The notes below the pieces were generated by a model that worked only from the letters and a program-made list of their open reading frames with translations, did no database searches and was not told the origin of the DNA. 33,325 bases of DNA from a virus (Duplodnaviria; Heunggongvirae; Uroviricota; Caudoviricetes): IMG/VR virus record IMGVR_UViG_2619619132_000007; one strand, given 5' to 3'. Made by a program: the position numbers and the translations under genes. Below, one piece after another: positions 5,071 to 33,325 of the stretch. Position 1 is the first letter of the stretch. Every line of letters begins with the position of its first letter.

Positions 5071-7628
5071 CGTCCACCTCCGGAGAACAGGCCACCATCA
5101 CGCATCTGTGTCTGAATTTCATCACGGGCACCCTTGCGGGCCATGTCATACACTGCCTTCATCATCTGTGGACCTGGCAGACCATTCGTACCGTCGTTCT
5201 GAATCACCACGTGATTGTTCTGATTAAAATTAATGCCTTCAGCCCGCCGCATCTGCGCCGGACTTCCGGCACCGCCCACATAACCACCTTCCGCATAGCC
5301 CCGCATCAGGCGGTACAGGTTGCCCACGCCAATCCGGCTGGTTGCCTCCTTCGTGAAGACAAACTCACCACGGTGAACAATCCCCGCTGGCTCATATTTG
5401 CCGCCGGTTCCCGTAAATCCTCCGGTTGCAAAATGGAATTTCGCCGCAGCGGCCTGAATGGCTGTACCGCCTGACGCGGATGCGCCGCCACCAACAGCCC
5501 CGCCAATGGCGCTGCCGATACTCCCGACAATCCCCACCATTGCCTGCTTAAGCAGAATTTCTGTCATCATGGACAGCACGGAACGGGTGAAGCTGCGCCA
5601 GTTCTGCTCACTGCCGGTCAGCATCGCCGCCATATTCTGTGCAATACCATCAAAGGTCTGCGTGGCTGCACTTTTTACCTGCGACATACTGTCCGTGGCG
5701 CTCTCTTCCCACTCACTCCAGCCGGACTTCAGGCCTGCCATCCAGCTCCCGCGAAGCTGGTCTTCAGCCGCCCAGGTCTTTTTCTGCTCTGACATGACGT
5801 TATTCAGCGCCAGCGGATTATCGCCATACTGTTCCTTCAGGCGCTGTTCCGTGGCTTCCCGTTCTGCCTGCCGGTCAGTCAGCCCCCGGCTTTTCGCATC
5901 AATGGCGGCCCGTTTTGCCCGTTGCTGCTGTGCGAATTTATCCGCCTGCTGCGCCAGCGCGTTCAGGCGCTCCTGATACGTAACCTTGTCGCCAAGTGCA
6001 GCCAGCTGGCGTTTGTACTCCAGCGTCTCATCTTTATGCGCCAGCAGGGATTTCTCCTGTGCAGACAGCTGGCGACGTTGCGCCGCCTCCTCCAGTACCG
6101 CGAACTGACTCTCCGCCTTCCACAAATCCCGGCGCTGCTGGCTGATTTTCTCATTTGCTCCGGCATGCTTCTCCAGCGTCCGGAGTTCTGCCTGAAGCGT
6201 CAGCAGGGCAGCATGAGCACTGTCTTCCTGACGATCGCCCGCAGACACCTTCACGCCGGACTGTTTCGGCTTTTTCAGCGTCGCTTCATAATCCTTTTTC
6301 GCCGCCGCCATCAGCGTGTTGTAATCCGCCTGCAGGATTTTCCCGTCTTTCAGTGCCTTGTTCAGTTCTTCCTGACGGGCGGTATATTTCTCCAGCGGCG
6401 TCTGCAGGCGTTCATAAGCCTTCTGCGCCTCTTCGGTATATTTCAGCCGTGACGCTTCGGTATCGCTCTGCTGCTGCGCATTTTTGTCCTGTTGACTCTG
6501 CTGCTCAGCCTTCTTTCGGGCGGCTTCAAGCGCAAGACGGGCCTTTTCACGATCATCCCAGTAACGCGCCCGCGCTTCATCGTTAACAAAATAATCATCC
6601 TTGCGCAGATTCCAGATATCGTCCGCTTTCTTAAACGCGGCCTCTGCCTTAATCAGCATCTCCTGCGCGGTATCAGGACGACCAATATCCAGCACCGCAT
6701 CCCACATGGATTTGAATGCCCGTGCTGTCCTGTCTGCCCAGGTTTCCAGCGTGCCCATGTTCTCTTTCAGGCGGCGGGTCTGGTCATCAAACCCTTTCGT
6801 TGCGGCCTCGTTCGCCGCCTGCAATGCCCCGGCTTCATCGCCGGAACGCTGCAACTGAGCAACATACGCAATCTGCTCCGCCGTCACGTTATGGAACTGG
6901 CGTGCCATCGCCGTCAGCCCCGACGTCGGGTCTGTGGTCAGCTTCCCGAAGGCTTCAGCGACCTTGTCCACCTCCACGCCGGATGCAGAGGAGAAACGCG
7001 CCACACTCTGGCTGATGGACGCAATCTGAGCCTCACCGCTTACCCCCGCCTTAACCAGTGCGCTGAGTGACTCGCTGGTCTGGTTAAACGTCAGCCCTGC
7101 CGCCTGCCCGGCTCTGGACAGGACCAGCATACGATCTGCCGTCAGTCCCGCCTGATTGCCGGAAAGGACCAGCGTTTTGTTGAAATCGGACAGGGTTGAG
7201 TTGCCCTGATACCAGGCATACGCCAGCGCTCCGGTCGCCACCGCCAGCGAGGTAGCCCCCACCATCGGCAGGGTGATCGCACCGGCAAGCCCCCGGAACA
7301 TGGGGATCATCCCGCCGAAGGAGTCCTTCACCTGACCCCCCTGTTGCAGCAGGATCAGCCACGGACTTTGCCCGCCTGCAAGCTGCGTGGCCACGTCGGT
7401 GAACTGTGCAGGCAGCATACGCATGGCGGCTTTATACTGCCCGACGGAAATCCCCGCTTTCTGTGCAGCCAGCGCCTGTCGGCTCAGCGACTGTTCAACG
7501 ACTGCCGCTGTTTTTTTCGCATCAGTTTCCGTACCGGAAAAATGACGCCTGACTCTGGCCATCTGCTCGTCAAATCTGGCCGCATCCAGACTTAAATCAA
7601 CGACCAGATCGCCTACCGGTTCAGCCAT
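5067..7628 (-). CDS. H: Tail tape measure protein H
   Basis: 853 aa, same length as lambda H; Ala/Gln-rich coiled-coil centre and Gly-rich C-terminus; sits between G-T and M. Confidence 0.92.
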   Translation of the reverse strand: MAEPVGDLVVDLSLDAARFDEQMARVRRHFSGTETDAKKTAAVVEQSLSRQALAAQKAGISVGQYKAAMRMLPAQFTDVATQLAGGQSPWLILLQQGGQVKDSFGGMIPMFRGLAGAITLPMVGATSLAVATGALAYAWYQGNSTLSDFNKTLVLSGNQAGLTADRMLVLSRAGQAAGLTFNQTSESLSALVKAGVSGEAQIASISQSVARFSSASGVEVDKVAEAFGKLTTDPTSGLTAMARQFHNVTAEQIAYVAQLQRSGDEAGALQAANEAATKGFDDQTRRLKENMGTLETWADRTARAFKSMWDAVLDIGRPDTAQEMLIKAEAAFKKADDIWNLRKDDYFVNDEARARYWDDREKARLALEAARKKAEQQSQQDKNAQQQSDTEASRLKYTEEAQKAYERLQTPLEKYTARQEELNKALKDGKILQADYNTLMAAAKKDYEATLKKPKQSGVKVSAGDRQEDSAHAALLTLQAELRTLEKHAGANEKISQQRRDLWKAESQFAVLEEAAQRRQLSAQEKSLLAHKDETLEYKRQLAALGDKVTYQERLNALAQQADKFAQQQRAKRAAIDAKSRGLTDRQAEREATEQRLKEQYGDNPLALNNVMSEQKKTWAAEDQLRGSWMAGLKSGWSEWEESATDSMSQVKSAATQTFDGIAQNMAAMLTGSEQNWRSFTRSVLSMMTEILLKQAMVGIVGSIGSAIGGAVGGGASASGGTAIQAAAAKFHFATGGFTGTGGKYEPAGIVHRGEFVFTKEATSRIGVGNLYRLMRGYAEGGYVGGAGSPAQMRRAEGINFNQNNHVVIQNDGTNGLPGPQMMKAVYDMARKGARDEIQTQMRDGGLFSGGGR

Positions 7629-8459
7629 ACCGGACTCCTCCTGCGATCCCTTCTGATACTGTCATCAGCATTACGTCATCCTCCGTCATGTCCGCCACAT
7701 CCGGGGAAGCGGGGATAACTTCATTCCCGTCCGGGCCAAAGCGGACACCTCCGGCAAGCCCTGCCGCTTTCTGCATCAGCACATCATCTTCAGGCTCTTC
7801 GTCAGCCTCGCGCCGGTTCAGCAGACTGAAATCCAGCGGATGCATATCCGGATCGCTGAAAAACAGGCTGAGCACGGTGTACGTCAGCCCGGAAAAGTGC
7901 ATATCCAGCAGAACATCATGAAAATAATGGGTACTGTAAAAGCGGTGCCAGTCGGCATACTCCGTGGATGACATCCCGGCAAGCATGGCACGCCAGTCGG
8001 GTCTCCCCATCTCACGCGCCAGTTTCAGGGCAAAACTCAGCTCACCGTCGAACACTTTCCCGCAGAAACAGGCTCTGCGGGCCCGGCGTCCTCTGTCTGT
8101 TCAGGGGCATTATTCACCACAAACTCATACATACCAGACAGCCGGTACACCACGTTTTCAGCATGAGAAATTGCCTCCGTGGGCCAGGTGGTAAGCACTT
8201 CCTGCTCAATCTGTTTAACGGCTTCATTCATGGACGGCATCTGCGTCTTCTGCGGATGGTTATGCCACAGGGACATCGCCACCAGAAACGCGCCGGTTCT
8301 GATGGCGTCTTCCACAGTAAACTTCCGGTTGCTGTCTGACTCCGCCTGTTCTGCCTGCCGTTTCATCAGGGCGAGATGCTCAATGCGCTGCAGGGCTGAC
8401 AGTTCAGAAAGCGTGACGGTCACACCGTTATGTTCAAATGATTCGGTTTTCAGGAACAT
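7621..8459 (-). CDS. T: Tail assembly chaperone G-T fusion, made by -1 programmed ribosomal frameshift (T frame 7621..8055)
   Basis: T-frame ORF (144 aa) overlaps the 3' end of G; G GGA AAG heptamer is in frame in G. Organisation is identical to lambda G/G-T. Confidence 0.8.
8037..8459 (-). CDS. G: Tail assembly chaperone G
   Basis: 140 aa MFLKTESFEHNGVTVTLSELSALQRIEHL...; matches lambda G; slippery site lies at codons 134-135. Confidence 0.9.
   Translation of the reverse strand: MFLKTESFEHNGVTVTLSELSALQRIEHLALMKRQAEQAESDSNRKFTVEDAIRTGAFLVAMSLWHNHPQKTQMPSMNEAVKQIEQEVLTTWPTEAISHAENVVYRLSGMYEFVVNNAPEQTEDAGPAEPVSAGKCSTVS
8055..8061 (-). promoter_or_regulatory. -1 frameshift slippery heptamer G GGA AAG (G to G-T)
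   Basis: Plus strand ctttccc at 8055..8061 is the reverse complement of gggaaag; in the G frame it covers Gly134-Lys135. Confidence 0.8.
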
Positions 8460-19858: not shown

Positions 19859-20064
19859 TTCATTTTCACTTTTTTAAATCCAACGACAGACGGCTGGCAT
19901 TTAAGTATTGTGAAATATTATCAAATGTAATCATCATTGATTTACAAAAGATACATTTTGCCCCGAAAGGATTCATGTCAGAAACATCAAAAGATGATGT
20001 TCTATACTGGGAACCATGACAACACGGGCATCTAAAGTGAATATGGTTTGTAATATTGTCTACC

Positions 20065-20277
20065 TCAAAGCGCCACTACATGAACAGCGGCAGGACCTTT
20101 AGGTCCGTTCTCAATACCAAATTCAACTTCCTGATTCTCAGTTAATGTTTTGAAATCGTTGCTCTGAATTGCTGAGAAATGGACAAACACATCTTTGCTG
20201 CCATCTTTCGGCGTGATGAAACCAAAACCTTTTTCAGGGTTAAACCATTTCACTAAACCAGTCATTTTGTTAGACAT
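20065..20277 (-). CDS. cspI: Cold-shock protein (CspA family)
   Basis: 70 aa [37 protein letters not shown]...; RNP1/RNP2 motifs; position matches Qin cspI. Confidence 0.8.
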
Positions 20278-20639
20278 AATTATTACCTTTTGAAGAAATT
20301 AGCCCTTGGGCAGAATGGTCCGAAAAAAAATATCAGAGAGAAAAACCAACAAGGAAATCTCAAGAGGTACAAATAATAAAATTATAACAATGACTGCTTC
20401 AGATAAATTTGTAACAAACCAGAACACCATTAACGCATGATTAACCACCCATAGCAAGGATTACTTTTGTAAAGAAAAACACAGCAATGAAAGAATAGCT
20501 TTATTTATTAATAAAACGTGTCATTCTGATTAAGACCTTTTATCTTACCCTTAAGATTTCAGGAATTTTGGCTCATGGAAGAGTCCTTTTTATTTAAATT
20601 TTACATTCCGCGATGTAAATGTTCCGATTTAATATTACC

Positions 20640-22666: not shown

Positions 22667-22948
22667 TGAGATTGTGGTGCTTTTTGTGGGAGTCATCCAC
22701 TTACGCACTTTGTTTTGCCATGCCAGCAGTTAGCTTCTGCTGTAAAACTATTCATGCAGCAAACCTGCACTTCACCACAATGGTTAGCATACTTTTCCTG
22801 ATTAAGATTTTGCCAAATATGCTAGCCATTGTTTCATGTATTGGACCTCCTTACTTTTTATTAAAGAGATCCAATATTCACTACTCTGTCCGTATCTCTA
22901 CTCAGGCATCAGCCTTCTTCGTTATCGTATACAGACGAGCGATGAATT

Positions 22949-23164
22949 TTAATCAGTAATGATGACATTTGCTGCTGCAGGACCTTTAGCACCACTCTCT
23001 ATAGAGAAGGTAACCTTTTGACCTTCAAATAAGGTTCGATAATTATCATTCTGAATCGCAGAAAAATGCACAAACACATCTTTACTACCATCAACAGGAG
23101 AAATAAAGCCGAAACCTTTATCAGCGTTAAACCATTTTACTAAACCAGTCATTTTATTTGACAT
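22949..23164 (-). CDS. cspB: Cold-shock protein (CspA family)
   Basis: 71 aa [51 protein letters not shown]... Confidence 0.8.
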
Positions 23165-23464
23165 TCTACATTCCTTAACTTGAGCCTTTCGGCATAAATG
23201 GTTTGCATAACAGAAACGACTTCGTACTTAATTGGAGAGACTCAAAGAAGGAATAAGTGAATAACACCTGAAATGAGAACTGCTTTAGTAAACTACTTCG
23301 TATATCGTCTGTTCTTCAAACCGACGCAATCATTAACGCATAGTTGAACATATGAAGCAATGTTTATTTTAGACATCCAGCCATCTTCAACCCCATCAAA
23401 AAACTATAGCTTTCTTCAGGAACGTGTGTATAGTGCGCCAAGTTATCAGTATTAAGGAATTTTT

Positions 23465-24864: not shown

Positions 24865-25953
24865 TTACGCCAGTACGCCAATTGTCAGCGCGCGATCGAT
24901 AAAACGAAATATCAGCTCCAGTTGGGAGCCATACTTATCTTCAAATGCCACTGTATCCGTATGCAGCTCGTTGTGATGCTTTCTGCACAAAGGCAACACA
25001 AAGAGATCATGTGCTTTTGTTCCCATTCCGCCCTGCCCGTGACCAATCAGATGATGCGGATCGTCGGCTGGCATACCGCAGCAAGCACACGGCTGTGTCT
25101 TAACCCAACGTGTGTATTTCTCCTTAACCCAGCGGCGACGTTTAGGCAGCTTCATGAAAGATTCCGGAGACTCTGGATCAACGGTGATGCTTACCACCGT
25201 CTTTTCCTGTGGTGATTTTTGTTGCTGGTGGGCGTAAGGCAACGGTGCAAGATTTTTTGTGCGTTGTTTCAATATGCTGGTGGCGGTCTGCTCTCCCGGT
25301 ACGATGTCGCTTTCGCGGTACACCGAGCAGATTTTTTCCGCTGGTAATCCCAGCGAACGACGCGATACAGCCTCAGGTAGTGCATCCACCACCTGATTGC
25401 AGACCGCCCACCAGGATAATTCAGCCAAAGATAATTCCCGCTCCTGCGTACCGCTTATTGCGTGACGGATGACGTCAATCACCCATGCTGTCAGCTTTTG
25501 TTGAGCAAGCAGCTCCAGTGATTCCGATGTCTGGTCACGCAGTTGGTTGTCGCAGTGCCAGCACAACACCATTGCGCCGGTACCATAACGGTGAATGACT
25601 GTTTCAGTGTGATGGTAATCGCCATTAGGCCACTGGCAGGATGTAACATGACGTAATAGCCAGTCGGACAATGCGCCAACGCCGCCAGCAGCACGAATCA
25701 CCCGTTCGTTACTAAAAAACGGCAGCAATGTTTTGTCTTCCGCCAGCGGCTGGCGAACGGCAGGAACGACTCCGGATGGCAGATTACGCATGCTTTTTGG
25801 TTCCGGTTCCACCAGCACTCGAGGATTATGAAATATCTGTATGGATTCACGGCCCGGCTTAAGGACCACCAGCCCAAGCTCAGGCACCAGAACAGGTCTA
25901 AGTAATACCCGCACGTTACCTCCAGATCCGTTGCTGGAAAGTGCGGGACGCAC
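24865..25953 (-). CDS. ydfU: DUF968-type prophage protein with C-terminal HNH-like zinc-finger nuclease motif (YdfU-like)
   Basis: C-terminal CACCGMPADDPHHLIGHGQGG...CRKHHNELH motif. The listed ORF is 362 aa; the true start may be the in-frame GTG 13 codons in (25914), giving 349 aa. Confidence 0.6.
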   Translation of the reverse strand: MRPALSSNGSGGNVRVLLRPVLVPELGLVVLKPGRESIQIFHNPRVLVEPEPKSMRNLPSGVVPAVRQPLAEDKTLLPFFSNERVIRAAGGVGALSDWLLRHVTSCQWPNGDYHHTETVIHRYGTGAMVLCWHCDNQLRDQTSESLELLAQQKLTAWVIDVIRHAISGTQERELSLAELSWWAVCNQVVDALPEAVSRRSLGLPAEKICSVYRESDIVPGEQTATSILKQRTKNLAPLPYAHQQQKSPQEKTVVSITVDPESPESFMKLPKRRRWVKEKYTRWVKTQPCACCGMPADDPHHLIGHGQGGMGTKAHDLFVLPLCRKHHNELHTDTVAFEDKYGSQLELIFRFIDRALTIGVLA

Positions 25954-26194
25954 GTGGTGGGCGTTCGGAATAAGGCAGCCTGACAGAGATTATCCAGTGC
26001 CGATAGTCGAGACTGAGAGCTTTCTTAACCTCGAACCCGCGCCTGCGGTAAGAATGAATCAGCCATTCGGCCTGTTCTGCAGTGCATGGAGGGTGCTGGA
26101 ACCATTCAGACTTGAATGCGTGAGAATACCGCCCGTGCGTGCAGGCAAGAACGGGCGAATTATCAGAATTGTAATATTTTGCGTTGCGTGCCAT
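25916..26194 (-). CDS. Hypothetical small prophage protein
   Basis: 92-aa ORF immediately upstream of ydfU; no recognisable motifs. Confidence 0.4.
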   Translation of the reverse strand: MARNAKYYNSDNSPVLACTHGRYSHAFKSEWFQHPPCTAEQAEWLIHSYRRRGFEVKKALSLDYRHWIISVRLPYSERPPRASRTFQQRIWR

Positions 26195-26260
26195 CGGTTT
26201 TCTCCGGTGGCACGGTGTTACTCAGCGGGAGTTCAGCCCCGCGCAAGATTGTAGATGAGT

Positions 26261-26512
26261 TTATTCTCCTGAAAAAGCAGAAAAGCCAGCTTTTATTCCG
26301 ATCTCTTTCAATGCCTGTAATGAAGTGACAAACTCACCTTCGCGCAAGATAAATCCGTCCGTGACCCGAGCATCCACAAAATTAATTAACGCAGCCCCAT
26401 TCTTTCGCAAACACATAATGCGGTAATGGCTAACAAGATTTCCATTTTCAACGCACACAGCATAGAGGCCATCTTCACAAAAAATTTTACGCAGTTCTTC
26501 GATGTTCATCAT
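26261..26512 (-). CDS. Hypothetical small prophage protein (possibly the Rem equivalent)
   Basis: 83-aa ORF between the ydfU region and hokD, the position rem occupies in K-12 Qin; sequence identity not verified. Confidence 0.45.
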   Translation of the reverse strand: MMNIEELRKIFCEDGLYAVCVENGNLVSHYRIMCLRKNGAALINFVDARVTDGFILREGEFVTSLQALKEIGIKAGFSAFSGE

Positions 26513-26627
26513 CAGAATCCTTCCGGATAATTAGCTCTCCCCTTTAAGGGACCATCCCTCTTATCCCTGCGCGCTACTTAAGTATTTTTGATTCTATTCC
26601 GGCACCGTCCAGAACTTCAAACGCGTT

Positions 26628-26660
26628 GAAAATAAAAACAAAAACCCGCCGAAGCGGGTT
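26628..26660 (-). terminator. Rho-independent terminator downstream of hokD
   Basis: aacccgc-cgaa-gcgggtt hairpin with T-run (tgtttttattttc) on the minus strand. Confidence 0.55.
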
Positions 26661-26728
26661 AAGTGCGGGTGCGTTGAGGATGCCTGCCACATCAGAGGTG
26701 GCGAGGGATTTCTCCCCCGCCGGGTCTC

Positions 26729-26884
26729 TTACTCCTCAGGTTCGTAAGCTGTGAAGACAGCGACCTCCGTCTGGCCGGTTCGGATTCGTACCTCGCAGAG
26801 GTCTTTCCTCGTTACCAGTGCCGTCACTATGACGGTTAAACAGATGACGATCAGGGCGATTAACATCGCCTTTTGCTGCTTCAT
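26729..26884 (-). CDS. hokD: Hok-family type I toxin (small membrane peptide)
   Basis: My translation: MKQQKAMLIALIVICLTVIVTALVTRKDLCEVRIRTGQTEVAVFTAYEPEE (51 aa); missed by the ORF track (under 60 aa). An overlapping mok-type frame and antisense Sok RNA are expected but not mapped. Confidence 0.85.
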   Translation of the reverse strand: MKQQKAMLIALIVICLTVIVTALVTRKDLCEVRIRTGQTEVAVFTAYEPEE

Positions 26885-26955
26885 AGCCTGCTTCTCCTGT
26901 CAACGCAAAGCAGAAGTGTCACCTTCGGTGCGAAACAGAGATGTCATGCTTTGGT

Positions 26956-27243
26956 TCAGAGAATGCGTTTGACCGCCTCGCTATATACTTCCGAGCGTTC
27001 TCTTTTCCCAACAGAAATCACGAAAACGACAACTTTCTCGTCTATAACCTGGTATACAAGGCGATAGCCTGAAGACCGGAGCTTAATCTTGTAACAATCA
27101 GGCATACCACGGAGCTTGTTTGCTTCAATCCGGGGTGACTCAAGTACTTCAACCAGCTTCTTTTTCAACTGTTCACGTACCGTCGAGCCCAGCTTTCGCC
27201 ATTCCTTTAGTGCCCGCTCGTCAAAATCCAGAAAATACGCCAT
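26956..27243 (-). CDS. relE: RelE mRNA interferase toxin
   Basis: 95 aa MAYFLDFDERALKEWRKLGSTVREQLKKKLVEVLESPRIEANKLRGMPDCYKIKL... Confidence 0.9.
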   Translation of the reverse strand: MAYFLDFDERALKEWRKLGSTVREQLKKKLVEVLESPRIEANKLRGMPDCYKIKLRSSGYRLVYQVIDEKVVVFVISVGKRERSEVYSEAVKRIL

Positions 27244-27482
27244 CAGAGTTCATCCAGCGTCACACGTACTGGCTTAGGATTACGAAGCCGTTCTTTCACT
27301 ATCTCCACAAGTTCAGCATCTTCATCACTCAGGAGTGTCTGTTTGAACGGCAAGCGTTCATTGTCAGCGATATACTCGAGCATGAGACGAAGCGCTTCAG
27401 AAGGAGTTACACCCATTTTTTCAAGCGCGGCGTAAGAACGCGCTTTAAGTTCATCGTCAATACGCAGGTTAATGCTACCCAT
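27243..27482 (-). CDS. relB: RelB antitoxin (RHH)
   Basis: 79 aa MGSINLRIDDELKARSYAALEKMGVTPSEALRLMLEYIADNERLPFKQ...; stop overlaps the relE start. Confidence 0.9.
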   Translation of the reverse strand: MGSINLRIDDELKARSYAALEKMGVTPSEALRLMLEYIADNERLPFKQTLLSDEDAELVEIVKERLRNPKPVRVTLDEL

Positions 27483-27535
27483 GTCTTACACCTCTTGTAA
27501 TTACAAATGTCATTACAAGTATCGCACTACAACAT
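27483..27535 (-). promoter_or_regulatory. relBE promoter/operator region (palindromic relO-like repeats)
   Basis: ttgtaattacaaatgtcattacaag directly upstream of relB contains the palindrome ttgtaattacaa and the related half-site tgtcattacaag. Confidence 0.5.
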
Positions 27536-27812
27536 GCTTAGGGCAAGTCACGAAGGAAGTCAGAAAGTAGTCGTAAGAACGGTGATCACTGTCCGCTTTG
27601 TGCCAGGAGCAGCCATTGCTAAGTCCATCCTGTATTGTGCAGGTCAGCTCGTTTTTAAAGAGTCCGGCCATCATCTTACTGGTACAGACACCATATACTT
27701 TGTGACGGTCAGGCTACATATGCACAACTCAATTTATTCATCTATTTTTTGCTTTAGCATGTCAGTGTTGCTTTCTCGTCGGCGGGTGAGCGGTGACCTG
27801 ACCTGTCGATAA
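27507..27812 (+). CDS. ydfV: Hypothetical protein divergent from relB (YdfV-like)
   Basis: 101-aa ORF starting inside the relBE promoter region; no motifs; assigned by position only. Confidence 0.35.
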   Translation: MSLQVSHYNMLRASHEGSQKVVVRTVITVRFVPGAAIAKSILYCAGQLVFKESGHHLTGTDTIYFVTVRLHMHNSIYSSIFCFSMSVLLSRRRVSGDLTCR

Positions 27813-27964
27813 AGGAACGTAACACGTTTTATGCAACACCCGCATGCGGCAGAAAATTATTGCCGAACGTTTACCCCTGTCAACAAGCTTTACTTTCTGA
27901 GGCGCGCCAGCCCGCGAGGAAAACAATCTGAACATCAAACAATTAATGACACAAGAAATACGAT

Positions 27965-27991
27965 TAAAGATTTTTTTGTGCATGCCGATAG
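27965..27991 (+). promoter_or_regulatory. Sigma-28 (FliA) class 3 promoter of flxA
   Basis: taaag at 27965..27969, 15-bp spacer, gccgatag at 27984..27991; matches the TAAA-N15-GCCGATAA consensus; 24 bp upstream of the flxA ATG. Confidence 0.6.
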
Positions 27992-28014
27992 TGCTTTTTT
28001 AAAAGGAGAAATCT

Positions 28015-28347
28015 ATGTCTGTCACAATTCAGGGAAATACCTCAACCGTTATTTCAAACAACTCCGCCCCGGAAGGAACATCAGAAATAGCCAAAATCAC
28101 AAGACAAATTCAGGTGCTGACTGAAAAGCTTGGGAAAATCTCATCGGAAGAGGGGATGACGACACAGCAGAAAAAAGAAATGGCTGCATTGGTACAGAAG
28201 CAAATTGAAAGCCTCTGGGCTCAACTGGAGCAGTTGTTAAGGCAGCAGGCAGAGAAAAAGAATGAAGACGCGACAGTTCAGCCTGATAAAAAAGAAGAGA
28301 AAAAAGACGATACAAATACCGCTGGCACCATTGATATTTACGTCTAA
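28015..28347 (+). CDS. flxA: FliA-regulated protein FlxA
   Basis: 110 aa MSVTIQGNTSTVISNNSAPEGTSEIAKITRQIQVLTEKLGKI...; aaggag Shine-Dalgarno; sigma-28 promoter upstream. Confidence 0.85.
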   Translation: MSVTIQGNTSTVISNNSAPEGTSEIAKITRQIQVLTEKLGKISSEEGMTTQQKKEMAALVQKQIESLWAQLEQLLRQQAEKKNEDATVQPDKKEEKKDDTNTAGTIDIYV

Positions 28348-28361
28348 GTGACAGCCGTATT

Positions 28362-28385
28362 GTGGCCCTCATCGGGCCACTTTTC
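28362..28385 (+). terminator. Rho-independent terminator of flxA
   Basis: gtggccc-tcatc-gggccac hairpin followed by tttt. Confidence 0.7.
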
Positions 28386-28699
28386 GCCATCAGCCTTTTC
28401 TTTAAAGACATATTATCTTTGTATCATTTCTGATAGTTAACATTACAAGATATAAGTAATGGACGCACTCCCAATTAGTCTATTTAAATCGCCACGAGTT
28501 TAACTGACAACCCATGATCAATTATGAATTGCAACTATTTCTGTAGTCACTTTTGTGGGGACAGTCCACAAAACTGCCAACTTCCGCTTCTTGCTCTTAG
28601 CGGACATTAGCATAGGCTATTTACCATAACGCCTCATTACGCGCACCGCCCAGACTGACTCAGCGCGTTTCTGGCATATCCCCGGTAAAACAAGTAACA

Positions 28700-30160
28700 A
28701 ACCACCCGAAAATGAACACCAGAAACGCGACTTAAGAATCTACCCTATGAATGGATATGCACTCAACCGAATCGATCTTGGTTTCAATCTTTTTTATCGG
28801 GATCAGGCTTCTTTTTAGGTAACTTCGGGGGCTTAACTTGCTGATGACTTTGCGTTCGGCGCGTAAGCCAGGGATGGTCAGCTTTAGGTTTAACATAGTA
28901 TTTTGAGCGTAAATCAATACGGGCATTATCCACTCGTTCATGGACACTCTTTTCATCATCCAGTGGTATAGGCTCCGGGCCATCAACATACTTTTCCCAG
29001 CCCAGCGCTTTCCCGTCATACAGAACGTTAATTTCACCGTCAAAGTTCTCGCATACAGTAACAACCGAATGCCTAAGTCGATATCCCCGGCCCTCACTGC
29101 GTACCTGAAACGCACTGCTTTTGTACTGGAAAGTGAGATTTTTAGACAGAACGCGCTTCGCCTGTAGGCTGAAGATATAACCCAGTTCCTCTTCAGAATG
29201 GTGCACATCAAGATGAGCATTATCAGTAGTACGAGGCGACGTAGCGAACCGGTTGTTATAGGCTTCAATAAAGGTCGGCAACCATGCATTTGCTGTTTCA
29301 ATATCACTGATATTCTGAAGCCGCATTTCTTTGACCAGCCTGTCCTGTAGTGTCTGATTGGCGCGCTCTACCCGCCCTTTTGCCTGCGGGCTGTTGGCAT
29401 GGATTGGCTCGATGCCCAGTGTCTTTATCGCACGAGTGAACTGGGTCAGCTCACCTTCCCGCTCTGGGTTATTTACCCTGAATATACTGTGTCTATCAGA
29501 GTAGAGAGCGAGCGGTACGCCATGATCATTAAGGTAACCCCGGAGGGTTTCCATGTAAGCCCGGGTTGTTTCAGCAGGCACAAAACGCAACGCCATCAAC
29601 GCACTGGTGGCATCATCAATGAAAACGATCAGTGTACATCTGGGGCCTCGATTTTCAAACCAGTCATGAGGTGAGCCATCAATCTGGATCAGTTCACCGT
29701 AAGATGGTCGTCGCATGCGGCGTTGATATATACGGGCAATTTTACGACGGCGTTCACGCCATAACCCCTCTTCTATCATCCACTTTCTGAGAGTTTCAAC
29801 GGATAAAGATAAACCGTGTATCTCGCGCAATTTTTCGCACGCAAACGTAGGTCCAAAATCAGCGTAACGGCCTTTGAGGAGTGAAATTACTGTTGCTCTG
29901 AATTCAGTAGAAAAGGAATTATTAGGACGCTTTCCACGTCGGTGGGAAACCAGACCAGAAGGCCCTTCATTTCTATACCGTTGCACCAGACGTTTAACCT
30001 GCCGAATAGAAATGCCAATGCGTGCCGCAGCTTGTTCCTGAATAATCTGAAGTCGGTGGAGTTCCTTATGACTCATCATAACAGTCTCTTTGATCATGAA
30101 AAATCCCCCAGAGAATTGTCTGGGGACATTTTAGAATGGTTCAAAGGGGACATTACAGCT
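28700..30160 (-). mobile_element. Insertion sequence with rve-type DDE transposase (IS481/ISNCY-like); ends not resolved
   Basis: Single transposase gene replaces the region that follows flxA in K-12 Qin. Boundaries are approximate because I could not identify terminal inverted repeats by eye. Confidence 0.35.
28784..30097 (-). CDS. DDE transposase, integrase-core (rve) type with N-terminal HTH
   Basis: 437 aa; D (IQIDGSPHDW) ... D (LALYSDRHSIF) ... E (QAKGRVERANQTLQDRL) spacing typical of retroviral-integrase-like transposases; Lys-rich C-terminal tail. Confidence 0.8.
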   Translation of the reverse strand: MIKETVMMSHKELHRLQIIQEQAAARIGISIRQVKRLVQRYRNEGPSGLVSHRRGKRPNNSFSTEFRATVISLLKGRYADFGPTFACEKLREIHGLSLSVETLRKWMIEEGLWRERRRKIARIYQRRMRRPSYGELIQIDGSPHDWFENRGPRCTLIVFIDDATSALMALRFVPAETTRAYMETLRGYLNDHGVPLALYSDRHSIFRVNNPEREGELTQFTRAIKTLGIEPIHANSPQAKGRVERANQTLQDRLVKEMRLQNISDIETANAWLPTFIEAYNNRFATSPRTTDNAHLDVHHSEEELGYIFSLQAKRVLSKNLTFQYKSSAFQVRSEGRGYRLRHSVVTVCENFDGEINVLYDGKALGWEKYVDGPEPIPLDDEKSVHERVDNARIDLRSKYYVKPKADHPWLTRRTQSHQQVKPPKLPKKKPDPDKKD

Positions 30161-30431
30161 TGGTGTTAACAATAGCCTGCTTCTCCGTGCCTTTCGGCAC
30201 GTAAGAGGCTAACCTACATGTGTCTAGCATGAAATTGGCCTCAGATTAATGTTAAGCGTCTTGCAGGACGCGTAATGTTAACTGGGGCTTTTCTCTATCT
30301 GCCGTTGGTGTCCATGCCCGAGGCAGATAGCCTCAAGCACCCGCAGTCATTCTACTTAACTAAGATTTCCCCGCAAACCGTTTTTGTCCAGCACAGTAAA
30401 TATCCAACTAAACCAATGGAGTTCGCTGTAT

Positions 30432-31153: not shown

Positions 31154-31341
31154 TCATCGCCCCACTCATCACAATATGCTTCGACCGGAGTTTTTCCCGC
31201 TTCATAGTCATCACGCTAGGATTCGACATCAGCAGCACTTCCACCGCGTAACTCACCATAGTCCATTAATAGTTCATCCCGCTCTTCAAAACTGATGTTA
31301 TATTTAGCTGAACAAAAATCAGCCACTTTGTTCTTCCTCAT
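31150..31341 (-). pseudogene. Small ORF (62 codons) interrupted by an in-frame TAG at codon 42
   Basis: MRKNKVADFCSAKYNISFEERDELLMDYGELRGGSAADVES, then TAG at 31216..31218, then RDDYEAGKTPVEAYCDEWGDE; the terminal TGA overlaps the ATG of the next ORF. Confidence 0.4.
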
Positions 31342-32924: not shown

Positions 32925-33325
32925 TGAACCGCCCCGGGTTTCCTGGAGAGTGTTTTATCTGTGAACTCAGGCTGCCAGATCATCGTTTCCGATGGAAGCA
33001 TAATAAGCTTTTTCTGCTTCTGCCGGAGGAGTATGGCCCAGCCTTTCCAGCAATCGTCGATTGTTATACCAGTCCACCCACGTGAGTGTGGCCAGTTCCA
33101 CTTCTGCACGGTTTTTCCAGCTCTTACGGTGTATTACCTCCGCTTTGTAAAGACCATTGATGCTCTCCGCCATCGCGTTGTCATACGAGTCGCCTGTACT
33201 TCCTGTTGATGCCAGTAATCCGGCTTCCTTAAGCCGCTGTGTGTAGGCCAGCGATACATACTGAGAACCTTTATCACTGTGATGGACCGTGCCGGACGGT
33301 CGACGGGCCCATAACGCCTGCTCCA
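32925..33325 (-). mobile_element. IS3-family insertion sequence, 3' end only (continues past the window end)
   Basis: Terminus tgaaccgccccgggtttcctggagag at 32925 (5'-TG...CA-3' ends typical of IS3 family) and C-terminal OrfB sequence. Confidence 0.75.
32967..33325 (-). CDS. IS3-family transposase OrfB, C-terminal part (partial)
   Basis: Minus-strand translation ...HSDKGSQYVSLAYTQRLKEAGLLASTGSTGDSYDNAMAESINGLYKAEVIHRKSW...WVDWYNNRRLLERLGHTPPAEAE; third-Asp and Glu DDE region of IS3-family OrfB; ORF open to the window edge. Confidence 0.8.
   Translation of the reverse strand, partial: EQALWARRPSGTVHHSDKGSQYVSLAYTQRLKEAGLLASTGSTGDSYDNAMAESINGLYKAEVIHRKSWKNRAEVELATLTWVDWYNNRRLLERLGHTPPAEAEKAYYASIGNDDLAA

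Follow-up and report, generated by a model that had tools for sequence, protein, structure and literature searches.

The 33,325-nucleotide stretch analysed here (hereafter the window; IMG/VR record IMGVR_UViG_2619619132_000007) was found to be Escherichia coli chromosome, with the mar-ydf region running into a Qin-type prophage. Comparison with related loci indicated that positions 26898..30171 very probably form a single 3274-bp transposon of the IS1202 family and ISEsa1 type, lying in minus-strand orientation in the order left inverted repeat (IRL), transposase gene (tnp), flxA, ydfV', relB, relE and right inverted repeat (IRR). The ends of this element, a 15-bp target-site duplication at its borders, uninterrupted sites, recurrent insertion at hok loci, the variability of the cargo and the structural class of the transposase were all established. 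The family is already known; the structure, duplication and hok targeting of the element appear to be undescribed. The literature on hok, IS1202, ISEsa1 and relBE (Ramisetty & Santhosh 2016 not covered) yielded no vehicle, ends, duplication, transposase or hok targeting, only the statement that relBE was "integrated" into hokD, and a recent survey of hok loci made no mention of the element.

Ends, duplication and uninterrupted sites

The ends of the element and the parts of the interrupted locus were located as follows.

30122..30171, minus strand: left end (IRL), terminus TGTTAACACCAAGC, beginning TGTTAACACC... at 30171
30146..30156, minus strand: outer site of IRL, GTAATGTCCCC
30122..30132, minus strand: inner site of IRL, AAAATGTCCCC
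26898..26947, plus strand: right end (IRR), terminus TGTCAACGCAAAGC...
26912..26923, plus strand: outer site of IRR, AGAAGTGTCAC
26937..26947, plus strand: inner site of IRR, AGAGATGTCAT
26883..26897: right-end copy of the 15-bp target-site duplication, ATAGCCTGCTTCTCC on the plus strand
30172..30186: IRL-side copy of the duplication, the identical 15-mer
26729..26884, minus strand: hokD (relF) open reading frame (ORF), 51 amino acids (aa), annotated hokD in K-12 and W5-6, abutting the leader directly in L087 and L088
30171..30342, minus strand: orphaned hok leader (mok/Sok region) of the hokD locus, running toward IRL and tnp
28784..30097, minus strand: tnp, 437 aa, with a DDE/RNase H core and N-terminal helix-turn-helix (HTH) domains

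Three findings place the right end at 26898: the 15-bp duplication, the uninterrupted sites of other strains, and relatives whose ends are the same. In two E. coli prophages (L087 and L088; L numbers denote the loci compared) rem, hokD and the leader are contiguous and the 15-mer occurs once, and the window without 26898..30171 aligned across their junction at 98.7% identity. On the minus strand the duplication reads GGAGAAGCAGGCTAT, which extends from the hok Shine-Dalgarno sequence through the "AT" of ATG; the junctions on this strand are ...GGAGAAGCAGGCTAT/TGTTAACACC at the leader and ...TTTGCGTTGACA/GGAGAAGCAGGCTATGAAG before the start of hokD. In element orientation the right terminus is ...TTTGCGTTGACA (...GCGTTGACA at 26898). 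The IRR sequence at this position (TGTCAACGCAAAGCAGAAGTGTCACC) was identical to IRL at 19 of 26 positions (16 of 22), the best IRL match in the whole window, where about 0.02 matches of 19/26 were expected by chance. Both termini are TGT/ACA, and paired AATGTCC-type sites lie 25 bp apart at each end. Five aligned contexts (the window and four plasmids) were identical through ...GGGGACATTACAGCTTGGTGTTAACA (30171) and then continued as related but distinct sequences of approximately 70-80% identity, which on the minus strand are hok leaders. Even relatives with proteins of 38-50% identity have paired AATGTCCCC repeats, 24-25 bp apart, at their left end.

A sequence-only reading of the same DNA had proposed a single-gene insertion at 28400..30260 for which canonical inverted repeats could not be found. 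The 437-aa ORF was indeed the DDE (rve-type) transposase of a mobile element and no such repeats lie inside that interval; they were missed since the right end lies away from the gene. The insertion itself is not confined to the interval: its left end is at 30171 and its right end at 26898, 1.7 kb past the interval and beyond flxA, ydfV and relBE. That the gene might belong to a larger element had been named as the result that would speak against the proposal, and this was the outcome. The GGGGACA motifs offered as binding sites or true ends occur on the plus strand as reported, at the exact positions 28557, 30122 and 30146 (0-3 nt off the approximate 28554, 30122 and 30147). The motif shows no enrichment: the window has 4 copies where 3.6 are expected, and 49 of 100 shuffles reached 4. 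The copies at 30122 and 30146 are the conserved subterminal pair of IRL and, on this comparative evidence, very probably transposase-binding sites at the element end, whereas the one at 28557 is part of the cargo and is missing from elements with other cargo. Both palindromes that had been pointed out also exist, ccccaga/tctgggg at about 30105..30126 and ttttgtgg/ccacaaaa at 28551..28573, but the latter is neither an end nor conserved; it belongs to flxA-type cargo just outside the boundary palindrome hpA (see below) and folds at -12 to -14 kcal/mol (z approximately -1.6).

A further IRL-like sequence (17/26) in right-end orientation was observed at 27617..27642, exactly at the junction of the cargo and the relBE module. 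By chance alone the window should contain approximately one match of this quality, and the sequence is not present in other elements and was not used as an end; its position is suggestive of an older right end. On a circular junction, TTGACA of the right terminus and TGTAAT (IRL nt 15-20) could form a promoter, such as has been proposed for other IS1202-family members; its spacing would be 17 bp if the ends were separated by 3 bp. A consensus scan for the hok promoter and for a transposase promoter within IRL gave nothing convincing.

Insertions at hok loci

The leader was a full-length match to Rfam RF01794 (sok), with 104 bits against a gathering score of 59 (E 1e-23). The match ends at the hok AUG, the final AUG of the model being aligned to AU plus the first T of IRL. 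The leader sits upstream of IRL in the same orientation as tnp, and hokD retains its own Shine-Dalgarno copy and ATG directly past the right end, downstream of relE. Both parts of a hok locus, a mok/Sok-type leader ending at the start codon and a Hok ORF of approximately 50 aa, were thereby recovered, 3289 bp apart in the window. Thousands of E. coli genomes matched only the leader part of the initial query. Just downstream of hokD, at 26639..26720 on the minus strand, a weak isrK-like Rfam match (25 bits, under the gathering score) has a strong terminator hairpin at its end; it probably represents the 3' end of the hok mRNA and not a homologue of isrK.

The survey of insertions covered the loci encoding protein relatives and 151 further loci with an exact IRL (viral and metagenome contigs), 185 IRL instances altogether. 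A complete unit was defined as IRL through ...CTTCTGCTTTGCGTTGACA. Complete units with the same ends and different cargo were flanked by locus-specific duplications of 13-16 bp at at least eight hok-type sites (Qin hokD, L005, L006, L224, L227, L204, L026 and L152) and at three non-hok sites (L019, L079 and L039), and the right end with a locus-specific duplication was seen in at least ten contexts other than the window. The duplications were as follows.

L005, pnd-type locus on an IncI plasmid: TGGAGGGGCTATGAT
L006, hok on an IncF plasmid: GGAGAAGAAGGCCAT
L224 and L227, hok, two different loci: GGAGAAGAAGGCCATG
L204, hok: GGAGAAGAAGGCCGT / ..CAT
L026, hok: GATGTTAGCCATG
L152, hok-type: GGAGATGTATGGGTCC
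L019, non-hok: TACCAAAACAAGCCCC
L079, non-hok: GGATTCACGACGGAT
L039, non-hok, a Scandinavium element of 70% identity: CATTAAGCTGCAAAT

With Hahella left out, 44 of the 59 distinct 45-nt enterobacterial IRL flanks (approximately 75%) were hok initiation regions, cut within about 2 nt of one position. They comprised 37 clear leaders, two pnd-type flanks, four hok Shine-Dalgarno sequences behind the end of another element (tandem arrays included) and one reversed case (L022). The 3301-bp version, in which the gene is intact, occupies no fewer than three distinct hok sites (Qin, L005 and L006). Since the sequence repeated on the two sides is particular to each locus, and since the same geometry was found at non-hok sites, the insertions are best accounted for by transposition with a strong site preference and not by recombination between hok loci. 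Tandem arrays, in which a spacer as long as one duplication separates a right end from the IRL of a second element, in some cases a diverged one, were also observed (L023 5502..5590; L222; L163; Hahella L028 5378..5395); one target had therefore been used twice, as reported for ISKpn21 at dif-like sites.

The data point to a mechanism in which one IstA/TnsB/MuA-like DDE transposase would bind two sites per end, pair the TGT...ACA termini and join them to target DNA with a 15-16-bp stagger. It would strongly favour hok-type toxin genes, inserting where their translation starts and with IRL on the side of the hok leader. The insertion duplicated the segment from the hok Shine-Dalgarno sequence to AT, stranded the mok/Sok leader upstream of tnp and put the hokD ORF, with its own ribosome-binding site kept, directly after relE, which gave the order relB-relE-hokD ("relBEF") familiar from K-12. 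As the elements have no conserved gene besides tnp, the choice of target is presumably made by the transposase itself or by a host factor that binds the hok initiation region. Transcription of hokD would then start from the relBE promoter and be freed from mok/Sok control, which is consistent with the published co-transcription of relBE and hokD, relBEF being one operon (PMC3598666). Elements of this type would inactivate the normal control of hok-type plasmid-stability toxins.

Transposase, exchangeable cargo and the IS1202 family

The transposase matched the NCBIfam equivalog NF033594 (transpos_ISNCY_2, "ISNCY family transposase") with 456 bits against a cutoff of 250 (E 7e-137). Pfam matches were obtained to HTH_29, HTH_32 and HTH_28, and to rve_3 below threshold. 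The D, D and E of the IDGS, YSDR and RVERAN motifs (residues 140, 201 and 244) were invariant in 30 homologues. A PDB sequence search gave only a marginal integrase-core match (E 0.0098), and a fold search was needed for placement. The predicted structure (predicted local distance difference test, pLDDT, 73) contains HTH helices, an alpha/beta core and a beta-rich domain, and the top Foldseek matches of this model were IS21 IstA, TnsB of CRISPR-associated transposons (CAST) and Tn7, and MuA (E 2e-14 to 6e-9). Near-identical plasmid proteins (92-98%) are named "IS1202-like element ISEsa1 family transposase" by the NCBI pipeline. In comparison to 446-aa copies, the allele of the window has lost nine residues in frame (ESLNRHITQ) in the first HTH region. 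This 437-aa allele was present at the same Qin site in approximately 760 of 5426 complete E. coli genomes, and about 550 more carry partial forms, including the K-12 truncation.

Upstream of the tnp start codon the minus strand carries a terminator-like hairpin (CCCCAGA-caattc-TCTGGGG, 30105..30126) and, directly after it, ATTTTTC and the tnp ATG. The hairpin folds at -20.5 kcal/mol (z -1.6) and overlaps the inner site of IRL as well as a G-run that is a candidate ribosome-binding site. Across relatives the pairing of the C-run with the G-run is kept; none of the seven pairs showed a compensatory change, a result by which the structure is neither supported nor excluded. The hairpin may limit read-through and translation from outside transcripts.

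The remainder of the element was resolved into modules with the following features.

28579..28609: boundary palindrome hpA, AATGTCCGCT-N10-AGCGGACATT in most copies
27617..28578: variable cargo of the window element (flxA, the 3' part of ydfV, an AT-rich spacer and the palindrome 28551..28573)
28015..28347, plus strand: flxA
27507..27812, plus strand: ydfV, a chimeric ORF that spans the hpB cargo boundary
27587..27616: boundary palindrome hpB at the junction of the cargo and the relBE module, consensus AATGTCCGCTT-CTGGCACA-AAGCGGACAGT, the left arm degenerate in the window
27243..27482, minus strand: relB (ORF and annotation)
26956..27243, minus strand: relE (ORF and annotation), forming a type II toxin-antitoxin pair with relB

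Copies of 70-90% identity aligned to the window only from 30171 to approximately 28583. This transposase module has a conserved 200-bp tail past tnp which closes in hpA. The palindrome is kept in copies at 70-100% identity, and homology stops just beyond it. As RNA it folds at -18.7 kcal/mol (z -3.15), and in some lineages C:G has changed to T:A on both arms. An origin of the 200-bp tail as a captured piece of hok, first hinted at by ATAGCCT and TAAGAG, was considered and rejected (local alignment scores of 16-20 against a shuffle mean of 18.5 and maximum of 25). At the other side of the element, the block of relBE and IRR (26898..27610) recurs at 90-99% identity by the right end of L019, L023, L024, L026, L048 and L079. 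The palindrome hpB also precedes a different toxin-antitoxin module in the 70%-diverged L039, in which a TacA/GNAT pair stands in place of relBE. The two palindromes are related (TGTCCGCT-N10-AGCGGACA), bracket the cargo and hold the transposase-site motif as inverted pairs (also in L019, 5519..5544 and 7809..7834); they could serve as extra transposase sites, as an enhancer-like element or as recombination sites.

The segment 27617..28578 was swapped for other genes in elements with the same ends and was not found at uninterrupted hokD sites. The genes located between hpA and hpB were as follows.

Window: flxA
L019 (4600 bp): cytochrome b561 and a cation-efflux (CDF) transporter
L026: YdcZ-type exporters and a LysR-type regulator
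L023: LysR-type regulator, TauE and thioesterase
L133: alpha/beta hydrolase and a LysR-type regulator
L039: GrpB and a hexapeptide acyltransferase

L133 combines the 437-aa allele and the exact flanks of the window with different cargo; the cargo is therefore exchangeable in situ, and homologous recombination within the conserved modules on either side would be the simplest route. The ncrABCY plasmids L003, L004 and L008 carry an ncr nickel/cobalt resistance cluster on the cargo side of the transposase module (the fetched sequence stops before the distal right end). Along with an addiction module, ISEsa1-type elements bring genes for metal efflux and for regulators from prophages to large resistance plasmids and back. 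The palindrome hpA or its edge is also interrupted by at least three foreign insertions and is thus an insertion hotspot for other insertion sequence (IS) elements: ISEsa2 (IS110 family) in L007, L009, L010, L012, L013 and L015 (~5537..7017), a 1.2-kb element ending TGTGAGTTCAAC in L011/L024 (~5533..6752), and a third insertion after GTTATGGTAAAT at the hpA edge in L022 and L224, with a duplication of approximately 29 bp in L224.

The family was assigned according to Harmer & Hall 2023 and Siguier et al. 2022, in which duplications fall into classes of 3-6, 15-18 and 24-29 bp. The element encodes an ISNCY/IS1202-type DDE transposase (HTH, RNase H fold, beta-barrel), has TGT...ACA ends with imperfect terminal inverted repeats (TIR; approximately 22-29 bp in the family) and an extra copy of the inner repeat part near each end, and is flanked by a duplication of the 15-18-bp class. 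The family is made up of single-gene IS of 1.3-1.75 kb, apart from a few "transporter IS" with one additional ORF, whereas the element of the window measures 3274 bp and carries flxA, relB and relE beside tnp. Other copies are 4.2-4.7 kb with two to four passenger genes, the overall range being 3.3-4.7 kb, or 7.7 kb where IS elements are nested inside; a better name than single-gene IS is therefore "transposon" or "transporter IS" of the IS1202 family.

Plain single-gene IS encode the transposases that are 45-62% identical to that of the window. Three such relatives were analysed.

Hahella: 1449 bp, at least 10 copies, duplications of 15-17 bp
Rhabdochlamydiaceae: 1466 bp, at least nine copies, duplications of 15-16 bp
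Castellaniella: 1433 bp, duplications of 15-16 bp

All three have TGT...ACA termini and two AATGTCC-type sites 25 bp apart per end, and on the IRL side the duplication is in most cases immediately preceded, 5', by a CAA-like motif. The Rhabdochlamydiaceae right terminus, ...TTTGCGTTGACA, is identical to 26898..26909 of the window. This shared terminus, and the presence of the two sites at the spacing expected, are independent evidence that the true IRR is at 26898.

ISEsa1 has been published as an element of 1609 bp with a TIR of 15/22 and no duplication detected (Harmer & Hall 2023, PMC10132070, Table 7; ISfinder: ISNCY category, IS1202 group). The window-type element appears to share its left end, and the transposase of the window is 92-98% identical to proteins named ISEsa1 family by NCBI, but it has a distal right end (19/26), 15-16-bp duplications, relBE with passengers, and a preference for hok. 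The 15-bp duplication contradicts the published absence of one. In L007, L009, L010, L012, L013 and L015 a 4600-bp element of the L019 type is broken inside hpA by ISEsa2, and the distance from IRL to this junction is 1610 bp; the junction is present in 330 plasmid records. The published right boundary of ISEsa1 thus appears to be the ISEsa2 junction, i.e., the entry appears to be truncated, which would explain the missing duplication. The entry would then end in ...GCTAAGAGCGAGA and be followed by ISEsa2 in its source, Cronobacter sakazakii ATCC BAA-894. No target has been reported for the long-duplication or no-duplication IS1202 groups (Harmer & Hall 2023, PMC10132070), and the present results fill this stated gap in that the ISEsa1 branch, reported without duplication or target, points to 15-16-bp duplications and a preferred target.

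Long-duplication members of the family (ISTde1 subgroup, 15-18 bp; Siguier et al. 2022, bioRxiv 10.1101/2022.12.17.520857; Harmer & Hall 2023) likewise have TGT/ACA termini, imperfect repeats of approximately 24-26 bp, a second inner-repeat copy, a single DDE transposase and 15-17-bp duplications. They are single-gene IS with no reported target, whereas the window element combines cargo with a site preference. Members of the ISAjo2/ISAba32 subgroup and ISKpn21 insert in an orientation-specific manner, with IRL beside a short conserved site, encode no accessory targeting protein and form tandem insertions at one site, and ISKpn21, like the window element, carries a passenger ORF. In contrast, their target is the Xer site (dif/pdif), their duplication is 5 bp and their transposases are only approximately 41% identical to that of ISEsa1. 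The hok target thus differs from the dif sites of the ISAjo2 branch, with no accessory protein involved, which makes the family suitable for comparing how single DDE transposases read their targets. TnsB of Tn7 and type V-K CAST, MuA of Mu and IstA of IS21 share the predicted fold, multiple subterminal sites and TG/CA termini with the window element, and Tn7 also uses a specific attachment site. Unlike these systems, the window element encodes neither an AAA+ partner (TnsC, MuB, IstB) nor a selector (TnsD, TniQ). The duplication is 5 bp in Tn7 and Mu and 4-8 bp in IS21, compared with 15-16 bp in window-type elements. Across the elements tnp was the sole conserved gene, the cargo consisting of FlxA, RelBE, cytochrome b561, the CDF transporter, LysR-type regulators and others, and the resemblance to Tn7 and Mu is limited to the transposase fold and the architecture of the ends.

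Alternative explanations and the K-12 relBEF locus

The simplest competing interpretation is a single-gene IS of about 1.6-1.9 kb at approximately 28400..30260, with the GGGGACA motifs and palindromes near 28555 and 30125 as its ends or binding sites. The motifs and palindromes do exist, homology of diverged copies stops near 28583, and the published ISEsa1 is 1609 bp long. However, the candidate right ends in this region (TGTGGGGACAGTCC at 28554 and TGCCAACTTCC at 28574) matched IRL at only 8-9 of 22 positions and hold the site motif in the wrong orientation, the motif at 28557 being direct and not inverted. The interval 28400..30260 has no flanking duplication, elements with other cargo do not preserve the palindrome region, the 1610-bp boundary is that of the ISEsa2 insertion, and the uninterrupted sites lack flxA and relBE as well; we consider this interpretation very improbable. 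Nearly as improbable is that an autonomous 1.6-kb ISEsa1 (28583..30171) landed beside a pre-existing relBE-flxA island, the IRR-like sequence at 26898 being coincidental or belonging to another element. The transposase and relBE modules are separately conserved blocks, and in the sequence fetched for the plasmids L003, L004 and L008 the transposase module stands without relBE. Nevertheless, the whole unit from IRL to IRR, cargo included, is bracketed by matching locus-specific duplications in at least ten contexts, uninterrupted sites lack all of it, the single-gene relatives have the same right terminus, and a lone 1.6-kb part with a duplication was not found among the 185 IRL instances.

Spread of the unit among hok loci by homologous hok-hok recombination, without targeted transposition, would fit the large number and relatedness of hok loci and the cargo swap in situ at the Qin site (L133). 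Recombination would be expected to leave the element-proximal flanks of the donor; instead, each locus has its own perfect duplication and the junction offsets vary by 1-2 nt. Insertions with 15-16-bp duplications were also found outside hok (L019, L079 and L039), and the single-gene relatives make duplications of the same length at many unrelated sites, which leaves this explanation with hardly any weight. Several observations nonetheless count against a site-specific transposon or narrow its claim. The support comes from comparative sequence data. Fifteen of the 59 distinct IRL flanks (approximately 25%) are unrelated non-hok sites. Some of the hok-flank variants may be diverged descendants of one insertion, which would make independent events fewer than distinct flanks. 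The cargo differences at one site (L133) show that homologous exchange also shapes the elements, and the window copy, with its 9-aa HTH deletion fixed at one site, may be immobile or inactive.

On balance, with some reserve, we favour the following proposition as a whole. ISEsa1-type elements would be site-specific, hok-targeting cargo transposons, whose lone IstA/TnsB-like transposase, without an ATPase or selector partner, reads the hok/pnd initiation region. Insertion would uncouple the toxin ORF from mok/Sok and install relBE (tacAT in a diverged lineage) and exchangeable cargo between two conserved palindromes. The K-12 relBEF would be the truncated right half of such an element, and the 1609-bp ISEsa1 an artefact of ISEsa2 insertion.

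E. coli K-12 MG1655 matched the window at 99.9% over 25110..28968 and then diverged into ydfX-dicC(-dicA...), none of which is present in the window. K-12 keeps the right 2.1 kb of the element, including the last 185 bp of tnp, so the sequence-only suggestion that tnp "replaces" the region which follows flxA in K-12 did not hold: the match extends to 28968 and the 185 bp are retained as ydfW. Because the match stops inside tnp, K-12 represents a remnant (a deleted or rearranged form), which would later have lost the 5' part of tnp, IRL and the leader, i.e., everything leftward of 28968 in element orientation. The ydfW gene (formerly intK) is exactly the last 49 codons of tnp (28784..28933), and in strains with a full tnp the NCBI pipeline annotates ydfW separately and the rest as an "incomplete" ISNCY transposase. 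The C-terminus of YdfV differs in elements with other cargo (64 aa in L019). Both ydfW and ydfV look like annotation artefacts of the transposon, and these, with the "incomplete ISNCY transposase", are exposed in thousands of genomes. Ramisetty and co-workers described relBE as "integrated" into the hokD/mok locus and acquired from plasmids (PMC6379469). The relBEF of K-12 Qin is the same sequence as that of the window (99.9% over 25110..28968), with the left half of the element gone, which hides its transposon nature. The K-12 relBE and its odd linkage to a leaderless hok (relF/hokD) are explained as one insertion with defined ends and a duplication.

Three further features were recorded elsewhere in the window. 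At ~31286..31294, strain W5-6 (L002, 6945..9031) has an insertion of the IS66 family (ISEc22) that the window lacks, and the 9-bp overlap of the BLAST blocks there would fit a target duplication. An ORF at 32967..33173 (minus strand) ends with the C-terminus of an IS2/IS3-family OrfB (...AEVIHRKSWKNRAEVELATL...), an IS fragment positioned like insD7 in K-12 Qin. Two full-length matches to the cspA thermoregulator (RF01766), at 20038..20423 and 22933..23325 on the minus strand, correspond to the Qin cold-shock genes.

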